Source: an uncultured virus (IMG/VR IMGVR_UViG_3300037067_011375)
Lineage: Duplodnaviria > Heunggongvirae > Uroviricota > Caudoviricetes
Virus record (IMG/VR): IMGVR_UViG_3300037067_011375
Location: 112,408 to 132,407 of that record
Strand: one strand, 5' to 3'
DNA length: 20,000 bases
Part shown: piece after piece, positions 7,453 to 19,999 of the stretch
Layout of the letters: each line of letters starts with the position of its first letter
How positions within the stretch are numbered: the stretch's first letter is position 1
The notes under the pieces: model-generated
What the model saw: only the letters and a program-made list of their open reading frames with translations
The model's database searches: none
Told to the model about the DNA's origin: nothing
Program-made: the position numbers and the translations under genes

Positions 7453-10431
7453 ATGCCAACTTCCCGTCTAACTCCCGGTCGTCCCGCCATCTGCCAAGCC
7501 TGCCCGCTCCAAGAATCAGCGGGGCTCACTCGTCACTGCTGTTCCGTCCAGCAGGGTCGTGACACCTCCCTGATGATCATCGGGGACCACCCGGTTGACC
7601 TACAGCCCCATGGGGCTGAGCCCTTCACTGACCCAGCGGGTCAGATGCTCCAGCGGGTCATGGGGCAGGTGACCCAAGGGAACAGTGGCGTCGCCTACGG
7701 GTACTGTGTGCGGTGCCGCCCGATGGACCGGGGCAAGCCTGACAAAACCCGCCCGGCCACCGCCACGGAGGCCAACCACTGCCGGGTCAACGTCGCGAAA
7801 GACCTGGCCCTGCTGAAGCCCAAACAAGTGGTGTTGCTGGGCCTCGGGGCTGCAAAACTCCTGGCTCAACTGCCCGATGGTTCGGCCGTGTCGGCCAAGG
7901 TTCAGTTGGGCGACCTGCGGGGCCGCGACCTCCACTGCACCGCCCACGACGGCACCAAGATCCCCGTGATCGTCACGTACGACCCGGAGTTCATCCAGCG
8001 GAACCCCACGGTCGCGGCGACGTGGCGCGACGATTTCCTGCGGGCCTGGCTTCGGGGGTCCGGTCGGCTCCCAGACGATTCCCGTGACGGCAAAGTCTAC
8101 ACCCTCGACACCATTGAGAAGGTTAGGAAGTTTGCCCGGCGGGTCGCGAAACTAAAGCGTGGCGATATTTTGGTCCTGGACTACGAGACCGAGGGACTCG
8201 GCCGCGTGGAAAACAAGATCCTGACCGCTGGTTTTGCATTTGACCCGGACCACGCCTATGTGATCCCGATGCAGCACCAGGAAGCCCCGTGGTCAGGGCC
8301 CGAATACCGAGAAATCGTGGGCTTGATCAAGCAGATCCTGACCAAGCCGGCTCCCTACTGGATCGGGGGCCACAACCTCAAGTTCGAGTTGCAGGTAACC
8401 CGTGGGCAACTGGGTTTTGAGATCGACCTACCCTGCTGCGACACCATGTTGAGGGCCCATGCACTCAATCCCGACTACGGTCGGGTGGATAAAAAGTCTC
8501 AGGGCCACGACGACGATGCTGTTGACCAGATTGTAGACACCACCGGGGACATTCAGGTCGGGGGTTTCGGGCTCAAGAGCCAGTCCAAGGAATGCCTGAA
8601 CTTTCACCACTATGAAGACGAAGATGTGGCCGCTACGGTCGGGCGCCGCAACGAAGCGAAGTTGGCGTTACTGCCGCTCGACAAGGTTATCCGGTACAAC
8701 GGGATTGATGGCTTCGTGACCTTCCGGCTGAACCACTACCAAGACGTCATGGCCGAGGCCATGGGGTACCGAAAAAAGTTGACTCGGTTGTGCCGTGGCA
8801 TGCACACCAAGGTCTTGGCCGTCCTGGTAGAAATGGAAACCAACGGGATCCGGGTGGACAAAGAATACCTCCGGATGTTGCTCCACGACGATTCCATCGT
8901 GCAGACCCGAATGCAGGAGATTTCCCAGGAGTTTTGTGCCCTGCCCTCGGTCCAGGAGGCCAATCGACGCCTCCTGGCCGACAGGTATGGTGGCCAGGCT
9001 GGCCTGTGGGGCCAAGGGGCTGGTGAATCCTGGGTGTTCTCGATGCGGCAAGCTCTGTCCAAGAAAATTTTGCTGATTGACGTCCTGGAGTTGGAGCCCC
9101 TAAAGCACACGGCCGCCGGGGCGGTGTCAATCGACAAAAAATTCCTGGAGAACTACGCCGGGGTCCCGGAAGTAGACCTTCTGGCCGAGTGGACCGCACT
9201 CGCAACGATCAAGTCCAGGTATCTCGTCGGGACCAACAAGGTCATGCTGGCAGACCCGGACATGCGGGATGGGCGAGCCAGGGCGCAGTTCCGGCCAGCC
9301 GGCACCATCACGGGGCGGATTTCGGCCGCCGGGATCAACGTCCTGAACGTGCCGAAAAAGGCCGAGGACGGGTCTAAGAAGGCGTCGGCCTCACTGATCA
9401 AGCGGATGTACATCTGCGATCCTGGTCATGTGATGGTCTGCGGTGACTACTCGCAAGCTGAGGTCCGGTGGCTCGCGGCCCTGACGCAAGACCCCGATAT
9501 GCTCAAGGCGTTCGGGGCTGCGTGGGATATGCGGGCCTTGTGTCTCAAGGACCCATCCCCTGAAAATCTCAAGCGGCTGGACGCCGAGGGTGACTTCCAC
9601 AAGCAAACCGCCTCGATGGTGTTCGACGTCCCGATCTCCAAGGTTACGAAGGAGCAGCGAGGCCAGTCGAAAGGCGTGGTCTTTGGCCAAATTTATGGTC
9701 AAGGATTACCGGCACTTGCAGCGATCCTGAAGAAAACCAAGGCCCAGACCGAGGAGTTCATCACGAGGTTCTTCGCGCGCTTCCCCGTGGCCAAAGACGC
9801 CTTGGCCCAGATGGCCCAGGACGGGTTTGAAAATGGGTTTGCCGAGTCCCCGACGGGCCGGCGCAAACAATTCGTCACCAAGATGATCGCGGGGGACGCC
9901 CAGGCTCTACAGTATTGTTCTGGTAAACTACGGTCGCTCCGGGGCCGTGAGGAGCGGGTGGCCCGCAACATGCCGATCCAGGGGATTTCCTCCGACATGA
10001 ACCTGACGGCCTGCTACCGGATCATCCAGTATTACCGACGACACAATCTTCCGTGGCGCCTGATCAACTCGGTCTACGACTCCATCATGCTGGAAGTACC
10101 GCGTCAAGATGCCGAGCACTGCGTCGAGGTGGTGCAGTCCATTATGGAACGGGAAGATTTGCTCGCGGGATTTGGGATTGACCCAGGACTCAGGTTCCTG
10201 GCGGAAATGTCCGTCGGGACCCACTGGGGCAACCAGGTGGACATCACGGCAGGCGAGCAGCAGTGGAAGGTGGGGTGCAGGTCCTGCAAAAAGTCCCGCG
10301 AGGAGAAAAAGAAGCCGACCAACCATCGGTGCGAATCATGTGGGTCCACCGACGTATACCTCGAGTTGATCAAGGGGCCACATGATTTGGCGTTTAAGTG
10401 GCTGGATCGCCAACTCAGGGGCAAGGCGTGA
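7453..10431 (+). CDS. polA: Family A DNA polymerase, SPO1-type: N-terminal family-4 UDG-like domain, 3'-5' exonuclease, polymerase domain and C-terminal Zn ribbon
   Basis: UDG-like CQACPL...PFTDPAGQML...VRCRP...EANHC...VVLLG; ExoI LDYETEG; ExoII GHNLKFE; ExoIII YNGID; TGRIS; motif A DYSQAEVR; motif B RGQSKGVVFGQIYG; NMPIQG; motif C VYDS; CRSC...CESC. Confidence 0.95.
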   Translation: MPTSRLTPGRPAICQACPLQESAGLTRHCCSVQQGRDTSLMIIGDHPVDLQPHGAEPFTDPAGQMLQRVMGQVTQGNSGVAYGYCVRCRPMDRGKPDKTRPATATEANHCRVNVAKDLALLKPKQVVLLGLGAAKLLAQLPDGSAVSAKVQLGDLRGRDLHCTAHDGTKIPVIVTYDPEFIQRNPTVAATWRDDFLRAWLRGSGRLPDDSRDGKVYTLDTIEKVRKFARRVAKLKRGDILVLDYETEGLGRVENKILTAGFAFDPDHAYVIPMQHQEAPWSGPEYREIVGLIKQILTKPAPYWIGGHNLKFELQVTRGQLGFEIDLPCCDTMLRAHALNPDYGRVDKKSQGHDDDAVDQIVDTTGDIQVGGFGLKSQSKECLNFHHYEDEDVAATVGRRNEAKLALLPLDKVIRYNGIDGFVTFRLNHYQDVMAEAMGYRKKLTRLCRGMHTKVLAVLVEMETNGIRVDKEYLRMLLHDDSIVQTRMQEISQEFCALPSVQEANRRLLADRYGGQAGLWGQGAGESWVFSMRQALSKKILLIDVLELEPLKHTAAGAVSIDKKFLENYAGVPEVDLLAEWTALATIKSRYLVGTNKVMLADPDMRDGRARAQFRPAGTITGRISAAGINVLNVPKKAEDGSKKASASLIKRMYICDPGHVMVCGDYSQAEVRWLAALTQDPDMLKAFGAAWDMRALCLKDPSPENLKRLDAEGDFHKQTASMVFDVPISKVTKEQRGQSKGVVFGQIYGQGLPALAAILKKTKAQTEEFITRFFARFPVAKDALAQMAQDGFENGFAESPTGRRKQFVTKMIAGDAQALQYCSGKLRSLRGREERVARNMPIQGISSDMNLTACYRIIQYYRRHNLPWRLINSVYDSIMLEVPRQDAEHCVEVVQSIMEREDLLAGFGIDPGLRFLAEMSVGTHWGNQVDITAGEQQWKVGCRSCKKSREEKKKPTNHRCESCGSTDVYLELIKGPHDLAFKWLDRQLRGKA

Positions 10432-13980: not shown

Positions 13981-14427
13981 GTGCCTGACAAACCCGTACC
14001 GGACAAAGAATCCCATCCGTTCAATCTCATCGGTCACTTCAGGTCAGAAATGTACCGGCAATACCGAGCGTTGCTCAACGCCAGCACTTGGCTCCCGATG
14101 GACCAGTTGGAACCGAATAGACTCTACTGGGTCTATGCCCGTAACGCCTACCAGGGCATCTGGAGTCCCCAGGATCGCGGGTTTTGCATCTTGCGGGAAA
14201 AGTTTGGTTCCCGATACCTTTTCACCGAATACCACTGGGACACCGGCAAGCCCTTCGGGACGGTCAAACCGTTTGGCCTTGTTGATGGCGAGGGGCCATT
14301 TGACCTGCAGGACCCTGACGGCACTTTCGCCCGACTTGACCTACTGGACCGTCTCCACGACGAGCCAGAGAAAATCGGGTTGGTCACGATGGCCCTTGAT
14401 ACCCTGCTCGGTAAAATCTGCCCGTAA
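13981..14427 (+). CDS. Hypothetical protein (148 aa)
   Basis: GGAGG SD 5 nt upstream of the GTG start. Aromatic-rich globular-looking sequence (LFTEYHWDTGKPFGTVKP). Confidence 0.75.
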   Translation: MPDKPVPDKESHPFNLIGHFRSEMYRQYRALLNASTWLPMDQLEPNRLYWVYARNAYQGIWSPQDRGFCILREKFGSRYLFTEYHWDTGKPFGTVKPFGLVDGEGPFDLQDPDGTFARLDLLDRLHDEPEKIGLVTMALDTLLGKICP

Positions 14428-14450
14428 TCCCAACCATTAAGCTAGATTTA

Positions 14451-15281
14451 ATGGTTCCGCACCCCGAGGTCCAGATGGCCAAAAAGCGAAACGACGAAGA
14501 ACAATGGCGTGATGTCCCTGGATACGAGGGTCTGTACCAAGTTTCTTCGTGGGGCAAAGTCAAAAGTCTAAGCCGCCAAACCCGGAATGGCCCAGGTGAC
14601 AACCACTGGATGTGGTCCAAAGACCGGATTTTGGCTGCACCAATAGATGCTCGCGGATATCGCTATGTAGGACTACCGCGTTTTGCTGCTGACGGACAGG
14701 CCACCTGCACGTATAAAAATCATCGCGTGCACTTACTTGTCCTGGCAGCATTCGTGGGGCCCTTACCCCAGGACCAGATGGGCCGGCATTTAGACAACAA
14801 TAAACTAAACAACAGATTAGACAATCTTGCCTATGGAACCCACCAAGACAACATGAACGACAAGTTCGTTCATGGCACTAATCCAGCAGGTTCAAAAAAT
14901 CCTGGGAGTAAACTAAGCGAAGACGATGTATTGGCGATACGAAATGCTTTTGTTCGTGGTGCCACCCAAACCAGTCTAGCGCTAGAATACCACGTGAGCG
15001 TCGGTAGCGTGTGCAATATCGTGCATGGCAAGTCATGGCAGCATGTCACGATGCCACCTAAGCTGCTGCGGTACTTAGAACAGCACCCTGTTTCAGCAAG
15101 CTACCGTCACCGCGGTGACAGACGAGTCATGACTGAAGCGCAGGTCGTAGAGATACGACAATGGTATGATCGGCATAAAAAGTCCGTCGCGAGCACCGCG
15201 CGGCACTTTAGCCTTCCGTATGGCAGCGTAAGAGGCATCATTACTGGTCGTACCTGGCGATCCTTGCTGGAGCAAAAATAA
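14451..15281 (+). mobile_element. Free-standing NUMOD4-HNH homing endonuclease with two C-terminal HTH-like repeats (alternative start ATG 14475)
   Basis: NUMOD4 EQWRDVPGYEGLYQVSSWGKVKS; HNH VHLLVLAAFVG...RHLDNNKLNNRLDNL..GTHQDN; repeats KLSEDDVLAIR...IVHGKSW and MTEAQVVEIR...IITGRTW. Visibly more AT-rich than the flanks. Confidence 0.9.
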
Positions 15282-17140
15282 TGCCTGTGAAAAAATACGG
15301 CGCTGCCGAAATCCAAGTTCTTGAGGGACTGGAGCACATTCGTAAGCGTGTAGGAATGTATATCCCCGACACTGGACCTGCCGGGGTCCACCACCTTCTT
15401 CATGAAGCTGTTGATAATGCCGTGGACGAGTTCCTAGATGGCCACGTTGACGAAATCAGCGTCACATTGCTGCCAGATGGTGCTGTTGTTCAAGATAATG
15501 GCCGTGGGATTCCAGTGGAACATCATGAGCAGGCCAACTGTTCCACCTTGGAAGCTGTGTTCACGCTGCTTCATGCAGGTGGCAAGTTCAAAAAAGGCGC
15601 CTACACCAGCGCTACCGGGGGGACTTTCGGCGTAGGTATAAAAACTCTAACGGCGCTCTCGTCCCACATGGTTGCCACGACTGTGCGGGATGGAAAATGT
15701 TGGCAACAGCAGTACCATCAGGGCAAGCCCACCACTAAAGTCCAGCGGGTTAAATCCGACTTGGCCGCTGGTGTCAGGGTGGAGTTTCACCCCGACCCAA
15801 CCATTTTCGGCGAGTGGAAATGGCAGCCCCGGAAGGTCGCGGCCTGGCTCCAGGACACCGCGTGGTTGTGCCCTGGCCTGACCATTATCCTGACCGTCGG
15901 GGACAAATCAGTCCGGTACCATAGCCCCGACGGACTCGCTGGATTACTACGGCACGAAACCCCCGACGCCGTGGTCCAGGGCGACGTGGTAGAAATCCAC
16001 GTTGAAGGGGTCGTGGACGCGGCGTTCTGCTGGACCGACGTGGAAGGCGAGCACTGGCGTTCCTGGGTCAACGTGGTGAACACCCCGGGCCACGGGGTCC
16101 ACGTCAAAGGCGCCACCAGGGCGATCCAGGATTTTCTCCAGGAGTTGTCCGACCAGAAGATCCGGGGTGAGGATCTTCGCGATGGCCTCGTGGGTGCCAT
16201 TCATGTCCGCACCCTGGAGCCGAAATTTCAGGGCCAGACCAAGCAACGGTTGGACAACCCCGAGGTCGAGACCCAGGTCTACGGGATTGTCCTGCAGCAC
16301 CTCCGGGACCACCGAGCAGCCCTGCAGGACCAATGCTTGGCCATCGTGGCCAGGGCCAAGAGGATCCAGGACGCCCGCCAGAAGTTCCGGGCGGAACAGT
16401 CGGCCATCAAGAACGTCAAGGTCAAGCGAGGAGCCCGGGGGCTCCTACCGGACAAACTCGTAGAGGCCCCTGACTGTACGGCTGACGAGCGGGAACTCTA
16501 CATCGTGGAGGGTGATTCGGCCGGCGGCACCGTCAAGAAGGCCAGGATCCGAAAACGCCGAGGCAAGGGTGACCACGAATACCACTACCAGGAGGTCTTT
16601 CAACTCCGGGGCAAGGTAGCGAACGCAGCCCGAAAAGGCGAGGTTGAGGACCTGCTGAAAAACCAGGAGGTCAAGGACCTGATCACCGCGATTGGCGCTG
16701 GGATTGGTGACTCGTTTGACCTGACGAAGTGTCGGTACCGACACGTCTACCTCCTGGCCGACGCCGACCCTGATGGCAAGCACATCGTCGCGTTGCTCCT
16801 GGGACTGTTCGCCCGGTATTTCCCAACGTTGATTTCCGCCGGGATTATCCGGGTGGTCCTGAACCCCCTGTTCATGGGGGTCACGGCGACCAGCAGGGTC
16901 TACGGCGATTCAGTCGAGGAAATCCGAGCAACCCTGGGGGGCAAGCAAAACATCAGGATCACGCGGTTCAAGGGCCTGGGCGAGTCCAACGCGTCTGACC
17001 TCCAAGCCTACGCGCTTCACCCCAAGACCCGCCGGGTCCTGCAGGTGGAATGGGATGACAAGCACGACGCCAAGTTGGTCCAGCGGTACATGGGGCTCGA
17101 CGTCACGGCCCGGAGGGAAATCCTCGGGATTGTCGATTAA
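15281..17140 (+). CDS. gyrB: Type IIA DNA topoisomerase subunit B (GyrB/ParE-like, 619 aa)
   Basis: GLEHIRKRVGMYI, EAVDNAVDE, DNGRGIP, LHAGGKF, FQGQTKQRL, TOPRIM motifs EGDSAGG, LRGK and DADPDG.HI, and RFKGLGE. Gyrase versus topo IV type cannot be decided. Confidence 0.93.
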   Translation: MPVKKYGAAEIQVLEGLEHIRKRVGMYIPDTGPAGVHHLLHEAVDNAVDEFLDGHVDEISVTLLPDGAVVQDNGRGIPVEHHEQANCSTLEAVFTLLHAGGKFKKGAYTSATGGTFGVGIKTLTALSSHMVATTVRDGKCWQQQYHQGKPTTKVQRVKSDLAAGVRVEFHPDPTIFGEWKWQPRKVAAWLQDTAWLCPGLTIILTVGDKSVRYHSPDGLAGLLRHETPDAVVQGDVVEIHVEGVVDAAFCWTDVEGEHWRSWVNVVNTPGHGVHVKGATRAIQDFLQELSDQKIRGEDLRDGLVGAIHVRTLEPKFQGQTKQRLDNPEVETQVYGIVLQHLRDHRAALQDQCLAIVARAKRIQDARQKFRAEQSAIKNVKVKRGARGLLPDKLVEAPDCTADERELYIVEGDSAGGTVKKARIRKRRGKGDHEYHYQEVFQLRGKVANAARKGEVEDLLKNQEVKDLITAIGAGIGDSFDLTKCRYRHVYLLADADPDGKHIVALLLGLFARYFPTLISAGIIRVVLNPLFMGVTATSRVYGDSVEEIRATLGGKQNIRITRFKGLGESNASDLQAYALHPKTRRVLQVEWDDKHDAKLVQRYMGLDVTARREILGIVD

Positions 17141-17143
17141 GTG

Positions 17144-17172
17144 TTGACAACGGCAATCCGCCGGTGTACAAC
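17144..17172 (+). promoter_or_regulatory. Sigma70-like promoter (TTGACA-N17-TACAAC)
   Basis: TTGACA at 17144-17149, directly after the topoisomerase stop, and TACAAC at 17167-17172. Predicted +1 coincides with ATG 17179. Confidence 0.65.
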
Positions 17173-17399: not shown

Positions 17400-17692
17400 T
17401 CGAACCCAATTATGACGATCTCGATCCGTGTATTGACCCCCGATGGACGCCGGGAAGTCTGGCAGTAGCAATCACGCAGGTTGTTGACGGCACCGTGTTG
17501 GAGGCCGCGGAGGAGCATTTACGGAGGGCCGATGCGGTAGAACGGCTCATCCGTGCGGGTGTCCGTGTGCGGGAGGCGCGCAGGTTGTGGCGCGACCCAA
17601 GCGTGGACGCCACGGTAGCCCAGCGGGAGTACGACGCGGCCCTGAATGAACTGGACGCGGCAGTGGAAACTGCGGAGCACTGGATAAAATGA
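17396..17692 (+). CDS. Hypothetical helical protein (98 aa)
   Basis: Start reassigned from 17240 to ATG 17396 (ATGA overlap). MIEPNYDDL...AEHWIK. Confidence 0.65.
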   Translation: MIEPNYDDLDPCIDPRWTPGSLAVAITQVVDGTVLEAAEEHLRRADAVERLIRAGVRVREARRLWRDPSVDATVAQREYDAALNELDAAVETAEHWIK

Positions 17693-17781
17693 TGGTCATC
17701 GGCATTATCATCACCGTCATCTGGGTTGTCGCGATCACGGTTGGTCTCATGGGCGGTCCACCTACGCCGCGGAGAAAATGA
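17689..17781 (+). CDS. Single-pass membrane micropeptide (30 aa)
   Basis: MMVIGIIITVIWVVAITVGLMGGPPTPRRK*: a hydrophobic helix plus basic tail, with ATGA overlaps at both ends. Confidence 0.55.
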   Translation: MMVIGIIITVIWVVAITVGLMGGPPTPRRK

Positions 17782-17873: not shown

Positions 17874-18134
17874 ATGAAGGAACATTTGGTCGCGTCTGAT
17901 TTTAGTTGTCCTATGCCAGACCGGCCTTCGGTCTTGGCGCCCGGTGCGGTGGTGCCGGGTGACTACGACCACTATTACTGCCCGCGGTGTCACACCAGAG
18001 TACACAAACTCCTCCACGGCGTAGCCAAGACGTGTAAATGCGGCCTGACCATGACACGCTACGGCAACGGGCTTGACATCGAAATGGACGTGGACCTGGA
18101 CGAGACCGCGCCGGTGGGCCAGGTGGTAAATTGA
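17874..18134 (+). CDS. Small Zn-ribbon-like protein (86 aa)
   Basis: CPRC...CKCG motif. Confidence 0.6.
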   Translation: MKEHLVASDFSCPMPDRPSVLAPGAVVPGDYDHYYCPRCHTRVHKLLHGVAKTCKCGLTMTRYGNGLDIEMDVDLDETAPVGQVVN

Positions 18135-18176: not shown

Positions 18177-18764
18177 ATGGATGACCTCTCCAGAGCCAAC
18201 GAAGCGCAGCGAGAAATAGATGAGTTGCAGCGCGCATTAGATTACGCCCAAAAGGAAGCGCAACACCTCAAGGTCATCATGAGGGACGCATTGGTGCCGT
18301 GCCCCAGGTGCAACGGGACCTTGTGGGTTGGTGACCAAGATAGCGGTGATGTTTGCCCATGCGATTCTGCTGGATATGTCCCAGGCTACGTGCCGGCGAC
18401 CGACGCTTCGCTGAAGCGACGGGAAAAGATCGCGTCGTCTCCTTGGACCTCTGGACTCGCGGTCCAGGTGGCTGGAATGGACGGTGGCTATCCCATTGAG
18501 GAGTATTACCACCCCGAGGCCGACGCGGTCGACAAGATCATGACGGCCGCGAAAGAATTGGAAACTGCTTGGACCGAATTGGAAGCGGCCCAGACGGCGT
18601 ACCACGTGGCCCTAAACGACACCACCATGTCAGTTGATGAAATCAATACTGCCACGGTTTTGGCCGCAACTGACCGACGCGATCGGGCTCGTGCGGAATT
18701 GCGGGCGGCTACACTGTCTGCGGCAGAATATGACTACGCCGCAGACAACGGGAGCGAGCCATAA
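18177..18764 (+). CDS. Hypothetical protein with coiled coils and a CxxCxG zinc-finger-like motif (195 aa)
   Basis: N-terminal coiled coil, CPRCNGT...CPC, and a TAATG overlap with the next ORF. Confidence 0.7.
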   Translation: MDDLSRANEAQREIDELQRALDYAQKEAQHLKVIMRDALVPCPRCNGTLWVGDQDSGDVCPCDSAGYVPGYVPATDASLKRREKIASSPWTSGLAVQVAGMDGGYPIEEYYHPEADAVDKIMTAAKELETAWTELEAAQTAYHVALNDTTMSVDEINTATVLAATDRRDRARAELRAATLSAAEYDYAADNGSEP

Positions 18765-19339
18765 TGCGCGAGTTATGTTTCGTTATCAACGGCGAAGAAG
18801 TCGGGGTGGGGATATCGGCGGAAAGCACGCTGGCTGCCGCGAGAAACGCGGCCCTGGCATACAGCGCCAACACCGGGCGCCCAGTAACTGACTGGGACGT
18901 ATACGATGAGGCTGGAGTAATCCTTTCACCCTATAAGATCATCGGAGATGGTGTCCCGGACCGGATGTTTCTCGCGCTCCGGATGGCGTCGATCTGCCAC
19001 ACCGTCGGGTACCAGGATTGCCCCGGCCACGTGTACGACGTGTCCCAAGCCAAGGTAGTTGTGGGGCCCACGGCGAAACCAAAATACGATTACGCCGATA
19101 TAATCCGAGCACTAGAACTTGAACTTGGTCAGCCACCGTACCGCGCCGCCCTGTTGACCGCTATGGTAGAAAACAGCGTGTTGCGGGAAGAGCGCACGCT
19201 CATGCAAGGCCAAATGAAAACAATGAGAGACACACTGAAAGCGTGTTCCAGGGTAATCAACGATCCAGAGTATCCGGATAGGCCAGTACTTAGAATTTGC
19301 ATCTGGGAAGCACTAGATCTAAAGGGCCCGTGGTGGTGA
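18764..19339 (+). CDS. Protein with an N-terminal DUF2604-like ubiquitin-like (beta-grasp) domain and a helical C-terminal extension
   Basis: Residues 1-73, FVINGEEV.V.....L...R..AL..SANTGRP..DW...DEAG.IL...K.IGD.....MFLALR, match my recollection of the DUF2604 consensus (VNGQ...ALEQSGNVGQPPENWELKDESG.VLD..KKVED....LFLSLKAGVAG). Confidence 0.7.
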   Translation: MRELCFVINGEEVGVGISAESTLAAARNAALAYSANTGRPVTDWDVYDEAGVILSPYKIIGDGVPDRMFLALRMASICHTVGYQDCPGHVYDVSQAKVVVGPTAKPKYDYADIIRALELELGQPPYRAALLTAMVENSVLREERTLMQGQMKTMRDTLKACSRVINDPEYPDRPVLRICIWEALDLKGPWW

Positions 19340-19407
19340 AACCTTGACCGGTACACCAAACTGACGACATGGCTGCGTGGCGCGAATACCATGAACGAGG
19401 CAGCACC

Positions 19408-19752
19408 ATGACCAAGCACACATTTACCGATTTGCTCGGGCGCGATTTCAGCGTACAGGTAGATCTTGATGCCGACGGGGATGACCTCTTATCCATAGAG
19501 GACCAAGGACACCACCCCATTATGCTGTTCTGTCACACCGACGCGATCGAACTGGCCAAGGTGCTACTTCGCTACGGCGCGCATGGGCGAGTTGAGCATG
19601 TCGACTGCCCAGATTGTGATGGTACTGGTACGGTCAACCCAGGGCATTTTCAGTGCTATAGTTGTGGAGGTACTGGCGAAATGTCAGGGAGTACAACACA
19701 CGATGCCCACGACGCGACTCTGGGGTCATTGTGGAAAATGGCAAGGTGGTAG
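19408..19752 (+). CDS. Hypothetical protein with a DnaJ-type CxxCxGxG zinc finger (alternative start 19369)
   Basis: CPDCDGTG...CYSCGGTG, with GAGG upstream of ATG 19408. Confidence 0.7.
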   Translation: MTKHTFTDLLGRDFSVQVDLDADGDDLLSIEDQGHHPIMLFCHTDAIELAKVLLRYGAHGRVEHVDCPDCDGTGTVNPGHFQCYSCGGTGEMSGSTTHDAHDATLGSLWKMARW

Positions 19753-19753
19753 A

Positions 19754-19999
19754 ATGAAATTCACCGTAAAGGCCACGGTAGACCCCGATCCAGATGGTCG
19801 CCACTGTGGCCCGTGTCCCATTTCCAATGCGGGTTGCACGTCGTTTTGCGTGCTGTACGGGCACCGTGATTTCGACGACCAAGGTATGGTTCGTCCTGTT
19901 GCTTGCCTGGAAGATGAAAAAGCCTGCAAGCTCTTGGTAGATTTTGAGGCGTCGTTGCCGAAGGTGCGGCCTGCCGTTTGCCTGGAGATGTATCCGTGA
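19754..19999 (+). CDS. Cys-rich small hypothetical protein (81 aa)
   Basis: Start reassigned to ATG 19754, 1 nt after the previous stop. MKFTVKATVDPDPDGRHCGPC...FCVLYG...RPVACL. Confidence 0.6.
   Translation: MKFTVKATVDPDPDGRHCGPCPISNAGCTSFCVLYGHRDFDDQGMVRPVACLEDEKACKLLVDFEASLPKVRPAVCLEMYP

Follow-up and report, generated by a model that had tools for sequence, protein, structure and literature searches.

Closest described systems

Bacterial ubiquitin-like protein (Ubl) conjugation systems, such as the Bil, Bub and CEHH-type systems, are newly recognised immune pathways, of which the targets and regulation are mostly unknown. Ubls of the beta-grasp fold also occur in type VII secretion (YukD and the EccD N-terminal domain), where they lack a conjugatable Gly-Gly and play a structural or adaptor role. 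Engineered ubiquitin variants (UbV) keep the ubiquitin fold with an altered surface and tail, contain no usable Gly-Gly, and inhibit DUBs and ligases as tight competitive binders without covalent attachment.

The solved structure closest to the phage protein described here, by both sequence and fold, is type II BilA of the Ensifer aridi BilABCD system (PDB 8TYX, 8TYY, 8TYZ and 8TZ0). BilA belongs to the same Pfam family, the profile of which matches it at 2e-21. Passages of the preprint of Chambers et al. (PMC10557695) report that E. aridi BilA is a substrate of BilC, which trims it, and of BilD, which adenylates it, and that it becomes conjugated; the pre-processing by BilC is required, and BilC also cleaves a BilA-GFP fusion.

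The phage protein departs from BilA in several points: BilA ends with K-A-G-V-A-G, whereas the phage protein reads R-M-A-S-I-C and continues, is phage-borne, and was found with no E1, E2 or DUB. Its Ubl domain showed 35-41% identity to the Ubls of bacterial MAG operons (L018-L023), with which it has S-x-N-T-G-R-P..D-W in common; however, those Ubls end with V-G-A-G-G plus 0-7 residues and have the enzyme genes adjacent, neither of which holds for the phage protein. UbVs are man-made and aimed at eukaryotic enzymes, whereas this protein is natural, and it would be the counterpart of a UbV if the decoy function proposed below is right.

Source phage and gene setting

The window, the whole stretch of 20,000 nucleotides that was analysed, covers positions 112,408 to 132,407 of IMG/VR record IMGVR_UViG_3300037067_011375. 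The source contig belongs to a phage: it is a virus record and carries PolA, topoisomerase II (topo II), HNH and methylase genes, and the PolA of the nearest cultured phage showed at most 29% identity. The same phage was also found on a longer contig of 177.6 kb, about 70% complete by CheckV. The two assemblies were 99.98% identical across 11.2 kb, and the 191-aa protein was identical on the second contig, with the ORF intact in both. A gene-call artefact was rejected on this agreement and on the intact ORF in the relatives, and a bacterial contaminant or prophage flank was rejected because phage topo II subunit genes lie on both sides.

The Ubl gene (18764..19339, + strand; 191 aa) is located between these two topo II subunit genes, inside the replication module, and encodes a Ubl domain, a conserved non-Gly tail, a linker and a helical module (ORF list, Pfam and AF2). 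It belongs to a run of small ORFs with overlapping starts and stops, zinc-ribbon proteins among them, and this region is not conserved, the related phage L013 having only parts of it in common. The ATG of the Ubl ORF overlaps the TAA of the upstream ORF (ATAATG), and a Shine-Dalgarno-like GGGAG read from the sequence (18750..18754, +) precedes the ATG by 9 nt. The upstream ORF (18177..18764, +; 195 aa) has, by eye in its translation, a coiled-coil-like part and a CPxC..CPC zinc-ribbon-like sequence; it gave no match in Pfam, PHROG or PADLOC and weak pairwise similarity (E=0.035) to the N-terminus of the family protein P0002. The downstream ORF (19369..19752, +; 127 aa) contains two DnaJ-type CxxCxGxG motifs (DnaJ_CXXCXGXG at 1.4e-3, below the cut-off, and phrog_3931). 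Motifs of this type were also found fused to Ubls, N-terminally in P0002 and P0003 and after the GG in P0033.

The initial annotation put the gene downstream of a strong promoter, which overstated the case. The sigma-70 consensus scan reached at best 9/12 matches, with four sites found against 1.8 ± 1.3 expected. A candidate promoter of the small-ORF run, TTGACA-N17-TACAAC (17144..17172, +), was recognised by eye immediately downstream of the gene for the topo II large subunit, 1.6 kb upstream of the Ubl ORF; its -35 is perfect and its -10 lacks the final T, and the scan did not report this site. Neither Rfam nor tRNA scanning gave a match in the window.

Ubl domain

Residues 2-76 (18767..18991, +) make up a beta-grasp domain of the BilA/DUF2604 type, as found by Pfam, phmmer, AF2 and Foldseek. 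Pfam DUF2604 (PF10790) matched residues 3-73 to profile positions 7-78 of 85 (E=6e-11, 43.1 bits against a cut-off of 25), and a six-frame search of the contig recovered the same match. The match stops at 78/85, just short of the Gly tail, whereas the GG-type relatives match through 85/85. In the phmmer search against solved structures, Ubl(BilA) 8tyx/8tyz was obtained at E=1.3e-4. The AF2 model showed a beta-grasp at residues 1-76, with pLDDT of 96-98 over about residues 1-70, and the top Foldseek match was 8tyx_A (TMt 0.82, rmsd 1.3 Å, 33% identity), followed by 8tyz_B (TMt 0.79). The DUF2604-type domain proposed in the initial annotation was thus borne out by profile, sequence and fold of the protein alone, and its assignment as a BilA/DUF2604 Ubl is well supported. 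PHROGs and PADLOC gave no match for the 191-aa protein.

The S-x-N-T-G-R-P..D-W motif, common to the family hits and the operon Ubls, is kept in the phage protein. The usual R in the W-E-I-R-D of the family is Y here, as it also is in the GG-bearing P0005, P0051 and P0073.

Replacement tail without the conjugating glycine

The tail consensus of the family is L-[RK]-V-G-x-G-G, and that of E. aridi BilA is LKAGVAG, exactly the K-A-G-x-A-G tail that the initial annotation gave for the family. At the homologous positions the phage protein reads R73-M-A-S-I-C78, and the chain continues to residue 191. Through our own reading of the tail register, which is gapless after beta5, Cys78 is aligned with the conjugating Gly of the family. 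The C-terminal Gly (G-x-G-G or A-G) directly after beta5 is absent, in comparison with the 73 other family hits and BilA. The replacement tail, R-M-A-S-I-C-H-T-V-G-Y-Q at residues 73-84 (18980..19015, +; subfamily alignment and AF2), has A-S-I-C where the family has G-x-G-G, and does hold one Gly, Gly82, four residues beyond the conjugating position.

We surveyed the tails of 77 proteins (76 from the homologue search plus P0002), four of which form the no-GG subfamily and 73 of which are others. GG was found within the searched region in 64 of the 77, at the canonical place in 62 as judged by eye, and in none of the four subfamily members (the phage protein and three close relatives). No residue follows the GG in 15 of the 64, 1-10 residues follow in 26, 11-30 in 8 and more than 30 in 15; precursor forms with residues beyond GG therefore make up 49 of the 64 GG-bearing members. 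What sets the protein apart is the loss of the Gly; a C-terminal extension as such is not unusual in the family. The absence of the conjugating glycine, with RMASIC in its place, stood up to both the survey and the comparison with BilA. A phage-borne Ubl of the BilA family, non-conjugatable via the C-terminal glycine of that family, is well supported.

Residues 73-84 are the best-conserved stretch of the protein and nearly invariant in the three close relatives. Across the four subfamily members, 9/12 positions were invariant in this stretch, compared with 32/72 in residues 1-72 and none after residue 84. The AF2 confidence drops in the tail (mean pLDDT 69 for residues 71-80 and 43 for residues 81-90), so the tail is modelled as flexible, which fits a motif that becomes folded upon binding a partner.

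The same stretch may instead mark a processing site. The precursor would be cut after Gly82 (H-T-V-G / Y-Q), the 82-residue Ubl would be activated and conjugated by enzymes of the host or by phage enzymes encoded beyond the 177.6-kb contig, and the helical module would be a second released product. Mature UFM1 ends with V-G, of which H-T-V-G is reminiscent. Gly82, Tyr83 and Gln84 are invariant and the sequence downstream diverges, as expected of a cleavage site; 23 of the 64 GG-bearing members carry more than 10 residues after the GG; in a related phage the helical module has its own gene; and cleavage of fusions by BilC is described in part of PMC10557695. About 30% of the phage genome also lies beyond the 177.6-kb contig. 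However, the tail is four residues longer than that of the 62 canonical members, a single Gly after Val replaces G-x-G-G, and no E1, E2 or JAB was found in the 177.6 kb. We consider this processing improbable.

Linker and C-terminal helical module

A disordered, non-conserved linker at residues 85-109 (19016..19090, +) was modelled with low confidence (pLDDT below 50 for residues 84-106) and is followed by a three-helix module (19091..19336, +; helices 110-121, 125-165 and 173-183; AF2 and BLASTP). This module has a homologue in the related phage, a stand-alone ORF of 96 aa (L013:854-1141; BLASTP 5e-9, 31% over 75 aa) placed immediately upstream of the Ubl gene there. When the neighbouring small ORFs were compared by BLASTP with the 76 family proteins and the ORFs of L013 and L014, only this pair of C-terminal modules matched. 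The module had no family match. A search of the ESM Atlas with residues 86-191 returned only unnamed small helical clusters of phages and bacteria (at most 0.89, TM below 0.52), and among 1.84 billion representatives the C-terminal part had no relative at E<=1e-3.

This lack of relatives, together with the loss of the defining motif, might be expected of a decaying remnant: the phage would have picked up a host Ubl gene, which then lost both Gly tail and function, with translation running on into downstream sequence. We regard this explanation as disfavoured and highly improbable: both assemblies and three relatives at 42-52% identity have the ORF intact, the replacement tail is nearly invariant, AF2 gave the beta-grasp a pLDDT of 96-98, and another phage keeps the C-terminal module as a gene.

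Relatives and phylogeny

The three proteins just mentioned are the only close relatives of the phage protein. A zinc-ribbon region is fused to the Ubl N-terminus in all three, whereas here a separate zinc-ribbon-like ORF ends on the Ubl start codon. In a quick tree, the four no-GG proteins formed one clade (SH-aLRT 99) inside the GG-bearing family, with a long stem branch of 1.26 changes per column.

An orphan GG-type Ubl, 39% identical to the phage protein, was found in another large uncultured phage (G002; L015 7995-8249). It is phage-borne like ours and also located in a replication module, near topo II subunit, clamp and polymerase genes. Unlike the no-GG protein, it keeps V-G-C-G-G plus two residues and is conjugatable in principle, and it grouped with the bacterial operon Ubl L023 (SH-aLRT 91), apart from the no-GG clade. 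No ThiF, Prok-E2_C, CEHH or JAB (PF01398) was found in 155 kb of G002; Prok-JAB (PF14464) was outside that search.

Against 50,697 phage records, neither the window (megablast) nor the 191-aa protein (tblastn) had a match, and the same was true of the G002 Ubl (tblastn); with these two protein queries, no DUF2604 Ubl turned up among cultured phages. The word-indexed homologue search returned only the protein itself and one relative. When viral contigs were scanned with patterns from the single protein, from the subfamily alignment or from P0005, only the same phage or nothing came back, and a metagenome scan yielded two further contigs, each about 1.9 kb long. The BFVD fold search gave mostly ubiquitins of eukaryotic viruses and some unnamed entries, with no named phage analogue.

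Several of these observations would fit a phage-internal adaptor, in which the beta-grasp mediates non-covalent interactions within a complex that also contains the zinc-ribbon and helical proteins encoded next to it, acting for example on replication or topoisomerase functions or on another host target, with no link to Ubl defence. The zinc-ribbon fusion in the three relatives, the helical module that the related phage encodes in its own gene beside the Ubl gene, the long stem with the altered surface residue, and the position between topo II subunit genes all point in this direction, as does the setting of the G002 Ubl. YukD, which has no Gly-Gly and is not conjugated, is a precedent, and weak YukD Pfam matches were found in some DUF2604 family members. 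A chain of the ESX-5 membrane complex (7b9s_5) was also among the Foldseek matches of the phage protein. However, the 191-aa protein itself had no YukD Pfam match at E<=10, DUF2604 being the sole report; no type VII genes lie nearby, where phage replication genes and small ORFs are found; and BilA, rather than a generic Ubl, is much closer and gave the best sequence and fold matches. That the strictly conserved tail lies precisely where the family has its conjugation motif suggests continued use of the ancestral tail-binding interface, and the neighbours have no function assignment from Pfam, PHROG or PADLOC. We regard the adaptor role as possible but rather unlikely.

Conjugation enzymes and bacterial operons

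The initial annotation saw no E1, E2 or JAB gene in the window, and the Pfam scan of its ORFs agreed. The full Pfam scan of 135 ORFs in the 132-kb contig (117 of them outside the window) revealed no E1, E2, CEHH or JAB, and that of 12 ORFs across 10 kb downstream likewise revealed none of these. In the 177.6-kb contig, about 70% of the genome, no ThiF, Prok-JAB, JAB, Prok-E2_C or CEHH was found, the CEHH control having matched no control genome. A cognate E1, E2 or peptidase elsewhere in the genome, which would have spoken against a decoy, was thus not encountered in that contig.

Bacterial MAG DUF2604 genes were found in Ubl-CEHH-E2/E1-JAB operons at all four loci with enough flank. Six loci were considered (L018-L023), of which L018 is cut after CEHH and L022 is too short to examine. 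The cluster order is DUF2604, Metal_CEHH, a Prok-E2_C+ThiF fusion, AAA_15 and Prok-JAB. The association of DUF2604 Ubls with bacterial E1/E2/JAB operons, as given in the initial annotation, thus held, with both the E2/E1 fusion and JAB at 4/4 evaluable loci.

Possible function as a non-covalent decoy

Judging from the sequence and the models, a decoy function of the phage Ubl is plausible, though we put it forward tentatively, and it is the best explanation we have. The phage protein probably works through binding and not through attachment. It would mimic the host Ubl non-covalently, and the form mimicked may be the Ubl precursor before cleavage or a fusion of Ubl and target. Body and tail together would fill the site at which a host system of the DUF2604-CEHH-E2/E1-JAB or Bil type binds its Ubl, with the JAB peptidase that trims precursors, or the E1, as candidate docking points. 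With no scissile or activatable Gly-Gly, host Ubl maturation or conjugation would be blocked, and the helical module and zinc-ribbon partners may give avidity or a second contact. The target and the inhibition are our inference. The JAB-type peptidase is a plausible choke point, since BilC must pre-process BilA according to part of PMC10557695 and 49/64 family members are precursors.

Much of the evidence above argues for the decoy. The fold and family are BilA-like, and the Ubl motif S-x-N-T-G-R-P..D-W is retained. The Gly is lost against 62 canonical G-x-G-G tails among the 73 other family hits, the no-GG proteins are one clade within the GG-bearing family, and the new tail is best conserved and flexible in the model. 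No conjugation enzymes were found in the 177.6-kb contig, whereas the bacterial relatives lie in enzyme operons. Of the marks of an anti-defence mimic, mimicry of a defence component was found in the BilA match, and a variable accessory region in the non-conserved small-ORF region, partly shared with L013, that holds the gene.

Other observations weigh against the decoy. Recognition of a Ubl by E1 and DUB leans heavily on the Gly tail, so a mimic that lacks it may bind poorly. The long stem and the R to Y change in W-E-I-R-D fit a changed partner equally well, the association with zinc-ribbon and helical parts is unexplained, and PADLOC and PHROG gave no match. The GG-type orphan Ubl of the other large phage indicates that phage Ubls need not be decoys, and the roughly 30% of the genome outside the 177.6-kb contig (CheckV 70%) could hold E1, E2 or JAB. 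Of the premises of the decoy as first proposed, the phage origin, the BilA/DUF2604 domain, the Gly loss and the lack of cognate enzymes within about 70% of the genome are supported; the strictly conserved replacement tail, the constant linkage to zinc-ribbon and helical modules and the long stem were not foreseen, and they would accommodate a role as phage-internal adaptor, or processing at HTVG, as well.

In its most specific form the decoy would be a natural "ubiquitin variant": a host BilA-family tag that large phages may have turned into an uncleavable, non-activatable pseudo-precursor, whose conserved Cys/His tail would lie in the active-site cleft of JAB or E1 and shut down anti-phage conjugation. 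We consider this doubtful but possible.

Novelty and implications

A literature search, including DUF2604 and PF10790, found no paper that describes such a phage protein, and no phage counter-measure against bacterial Ubl conjugation was described in the literature searched. The only counter-defence idea found concerns DUB domains of tail assembly, in a passage of the Hor et al. preprint, and the part of a 2026 review that deals with BilA and BilC describes no phage counter-measure.

With its Ubl body kept and its reactive tail swapped for a conserved non-reactive one, the phage protein is a directly testable candidate inhibitor, and it could probe which enzyme of the pathway is limiting. If the natural ubiquitin variant described above is true, it would be the first anti-defence protein against ubiquitination-type immunity in bacteria, and the no-GG tail motif with the zinc-ribbon and helical add-ons would be a sequence handle for finding more. 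If it is a phage-internal adaptor instead, it shows that phages put the BilA fold to uses of their own. Whether decoy or adaptor, it takes the BilA/DUF2604 family beyond bacterial operons.

Ubl domain of the phage protein

The 191-codon ORF at 18764-19339 (+) was intact by sequence reading. Its ATG shares bases with the TAA of the upstream ORF (ATAATG), and GGGAG lies 9 nt 5' of the ATG; the strong promoter noted in the initial annotation was not confirmed. Pfam DUF2604 matched residues 3-73 (E=6e-11, 43.1 bits against a cut-off of 25), and the sequence matches at E<0.01 among solved structures were bacterial Ubls only, namely BilA (8TYX/8TYZ, 1.3e-4) and the third domains of two Ubl3 proteins. 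In the AlphaFold2 model (49-row alignment), residues 1-76 form a beta-grasp with pLDDT 96-98. Foldseek ranked 8tyx_A (TMt 0.82, rmsd 1.3 A, 33% identity) and 8tyz_B at the top, with ubiquitin, SUMO and UFM1 lower, so the DUF2604-type domain had been correctly recognized.

Tail at the conjugation site

Ensifer aridi BilA was aligned to its end (...LFLSLKAGVAG) with a profile of ten family members, and this ending is the K-A-G-x-A-G tail given for the family in the initial annotation. We compared 77 family tails, 76 from proteins at E<=1e-3 in an exhaustive HMMER search and one (P0002) from a separate homologue search. GG was present within the expected span in 64 of them, and in 62 of the 64, by eye, strand beta5 runs straight into L-[RK]-V-G-x-G-G; in P0068 and P0075 the GG is not at the canonical place. 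The tandem protein P0032 carries the canonical ending on its second domain. Apart from the phage protein and its three closest relatives, the non-GG tails comprised short or divergent ends (P0014 and P0065), Gly-containing variants (P0027, P0056, P0059, P0067 and P0077) and P0055, a second no-GG form that looks unrelated and whose tail is rich in Cys and His (..LAGCFCCHGTT..).

No residue follows the GG in 15 of the 64 tails, 1-10 residues follow in 26, 11-30 in eight and >30 in 15. Since extensions after GG are common, the long C-terminal continuation is not distinctive of the phage protein; its distinctive feature is A-S-I-C at the G-x-G-G positions. By this tail register, read without gaps, Cys78 would align with the conjugating Gly. 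The fusions after Gly-Gly in the family included a phage-integrase domain (P0017), DUF4326 (P0054) and CxxC zinc ribbons (P0033 and P0036), the last resembling eukaryotic ubiquitin-ribosomal-protein fusions.

A subfamily without GG

Only three close relatives (P0002, P0003 and P0004; 42-52% identity) were found among 1.84 billion representatives and a 5.8-billion-cluster index. All four members replace the Gly tail with M-A-[SA]-I-[CT]-H-T-V-G-Y-Q. Nine of the 12 positions in residues 73-84 are invariant and 32 of the 72 in residues 1-72, with none beyond 84; this conservation contradicts a decaying remnant, which we regard as highly improbable. Model confidence drops along the replacement tail, from a mean pLDDT of 69 in residues 71-80 to one of 43 in residues 81-90. 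A conserved but unstructured tail is what a partner-binding motif would be expected to look like.

The four proteins grouped as a single clade (SH-aLRT 99) in a quick tree of 83 Ubl domains built by maximum likelihood, for which the aligned segments included tail residues. The clade has a long stem, 1.26 changes per column, and is placed among GG-bearing proteins on a backbone without resolution. The closest GG-bearing protein was P0005 (E=8e-9), which, like the phage protein, has a short loop between beta4 and beta5 and a Tyr in D-W-x-[IV]-Y-D.

Linker, helical module and zinc-ribbon neighbours

The AlphaFold2 model falls below pLDDT 50 across residues 84-106 and then contains three helices in residues 110-183, one of about 40 residues (block-mean pLDDT 73-90). 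Pfam, PHROG and PADLOC gave no match to this helical part, database searches gave no relative at E<=1e-3, and the ESM Atlas offered no helpful lead. The helical part is homologous to a stand-alone 96-aa ORF (BLASTP 5e-9, 31% over 75 residues) that directly precedes the Ubl gene on two contigs of about 1.9 kb (L013 and L014). The phage of these contigs is related to the present one, because an 86-aa zinc-ribbon ORF (window 17874-18134) has a counterpart in L013 at 88% DNA identity.

An N-terminal Cys-rich zinc-ribbon region is fused to the Ubl in the L013/L014 phage, P0003 and P0004. Its counterpart in the window is a separate 195-aa ORF with a CPxC...CPC motif, which ends on the Ubl start codon and shows weak similarity to the fused region (E=0.035). 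The downstream 127-aa ORF contains two DnaJ-type CxxCxGxG motifs (Pfam match below cut-off), and the same motif is fused to the Ubls of P0002 and P0003 and follows the GG in P0033. The stand-alone 96-aa ORF and the fused versus separate zinc ribbons indicate that the Ubl, the zinc-ribbon part and the helical module travel together, fused or split in varying ways. A 59-nt stretch at a gene junction (window 19706-19764) was 75% identical to L013 811-867. Its peptide (..VIVENGKVV) is the end of a 63-aa ORF in L013, in a frame different from that of window ORF 19369-19752, and the stretch reflects a difference of frame at the 3' terminus or, alternatively, a junction formed by mosaic recombination.

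Phage genome and gene setting

The window forms the 3' terminus of a virus record of 132,407 bases (49% complete by CheckV), and a second contig of the same phage (G001; 177,603 bases, 70% complete) was 99.98% identical to it over 11.2 kb. From these lengths and completeness values we estimated a large phage genome of roughly 250 kb. The window had no DNA match in cultured phages, and the best PolA match there was <=29% identical. Its genes encode a metallophosphatase, a family-A DNA polymerase, a C5 methyltransferase, an HNH endonuclease and a GyrB-like large subunit of topoisomerase II (15281-17137). In the polymerase (7453-10428), an N-terminal UDG-superfamily domain (UDG 2.3e-14, residues 37-189) is fused to the exonuclease and polymerase domains.

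The GyrA-like topoisomerase II subunit gene is located about 5.6 kb after the GyrB-like gene on the longer contig (L010, its downstream stretch, 14073-16208). The two genes are separated by a series of short ORFs, most of which overlap at their start and stop codons, and the Ubl gene is one of them. This variable small-gene region has roughly 15 ORFs, mostly without family match, including a 30-aa hydrophobic ORF at window 17689-17781.

Elsewhere in the record (pieces L002 2251-3879; L004 5220-6560; L007 8368-9552 (-); L008 5259-6805), we found a Cas3-HD and DEAD-helicase protein (Cas3_HD 1e-33), three TnpB (OrfB_IS605/Cas12f-like TNB) and one IS200 TnpA. Three further ORFs, listed jointly at L003 13199-15277, L003 4115-7846 and L008 11204-11881, encode a 693-aa protein with GNAT, a weak PARP-like match and NUDIX, a 1244-aa protein with an intein carrying LAGLIDADG, and a 226-aa protein with a cREC_REC (cyclic-phosphate processing receiver) domain.

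Cognate enzymes

Scanned against all of Pfam, 18 window ORFs, 117 other ORFs of the record and 12 downstream ORFs of the longer contig showed no ThiF, E2 or JAB domain. ThiF, Prok-JAB, JAB, Prok-E2_C and Metal_CEHH also gave no match at E<=0.1 when the entire 177.6-kb contig, about 70% of the genome, was searched in six frames; the CEHH null is of little weight because that search matched in no control genome, and E2 families other than Prok-E2_C were covered in the record and L010. The contigs thus leave about 30% of the genome missing, which, together with the invariant G-Y-Q, would allow for a modifier processed after invariant Gly82. Its tail, however, would exceed those of the 62 canonical relatives by four residues, and we consider this reading unlikely.

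A viral-contig scan that used a GG-type alignment detected one other large phage, on two contigs (G002, 155 kb, 65% complete; G003, 11 kb), a count that is too low because the scan was limited to two peptide patterns. Its orphan DUF2604 Ubl (L015 7995-8249) ends V-G-C-G-G-H-N and lies beside an RlaP-like nucleotidyltransferase and near a topoisomerase II A subunit, clamp, clamp loader and PolB. ThiF, Prok-E2_C, CEHH and JAB (PF01398) were searched and not found in G002, nor was ThiF in G003. In the quick tree this Ubl clusters with a Nitrospirota operon Ubl (SH-aLRT 91).

Bacterial relatives

Six bacterial MAG loci (one genome per species) were obtained by pattern scan, and ORFs were scanned in five, all but the 1.7-kb L022. 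In L019, L020, L021 and L023 a Prok-E2_C+ThiF fusion is located <=5 kb after the Ubl, with an AAA_15 ATPase and Prok-JAB nearby. The occurrence of DUF2604 Ubls in E1/E2/JAB operons, as stated in the initial annotation, thus held in all four loci with enough flank. Metal_CEHH follows the Ubl in L018, L019, L020 and L023, and L018 stops directly past it. The set common to the four operons consists of the Ubl, Metal_CEHH, the E2_C+ThiF fusion, an unannotated protein of about 300 aa, the AAA_15 ATPase and Prok-JAB. These operons often adjoin an integrase, suggesting that they form a mobile cassette of the defence-island type. E2 and E1 form one fusion in these operons, whereas they are separate in BilABCD.

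The Bil literature states that defence requires the terminal Gly of BilA (Hor et al. preprint), that BilC trims BilA precursors and also cleaves a BilA-GFP fusion (PMC10557695), and that type II Bil and Bub Ubls carry varied N-terminal additions, coiled coils included (PMC11601603).

Possible function

The initial annotation had proposed a decoy against Bil defence. Of this reading, BilA-family identity and loss of the conjugating Gly were both supported, and the decoy function is a putative one. No paper naming 'DUF2604' or 'PF10790' was found in a literature search, and no phage-encoded Ubl of such kind, nor any Bil inhibitor, mimic or anti-defence protein, was found in titles and abstract starts; supplementary tables outside that search (PMC11601603 Table S1, Hor et al. 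preprint Table S6) could list atypical Ubls. The section of a 2026 review treating BilA/BilC describes no counter-defence.

We infer that the protein would work by binding and not by attachment. Against a target in the host Ubl machinery, the long stem branch and an R-to-Y change are as compatible with a new partner as with stronger binding to the former one, and the zinc-ribbon and helical additions are not accounted for. The main alternative is a phage-internal adaptor, which we hold to be possible but doubtful. YukD and EccD are non-conjugated Ubls of that kind.

The host Ubl machinery is our tentative choice of target. Most family members are precursors in need of a JAB peptidase. The phage protein resembles such a precursor or a Ubl-target fusion, but with a tail that would be neither cleavable nor activatable, and with such a body and tail it could serve as a pseudo-substrate for the JAB peptidase or E1. 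As pure speculation, the Cys/His pair of the tail might contact the JAB zinc.
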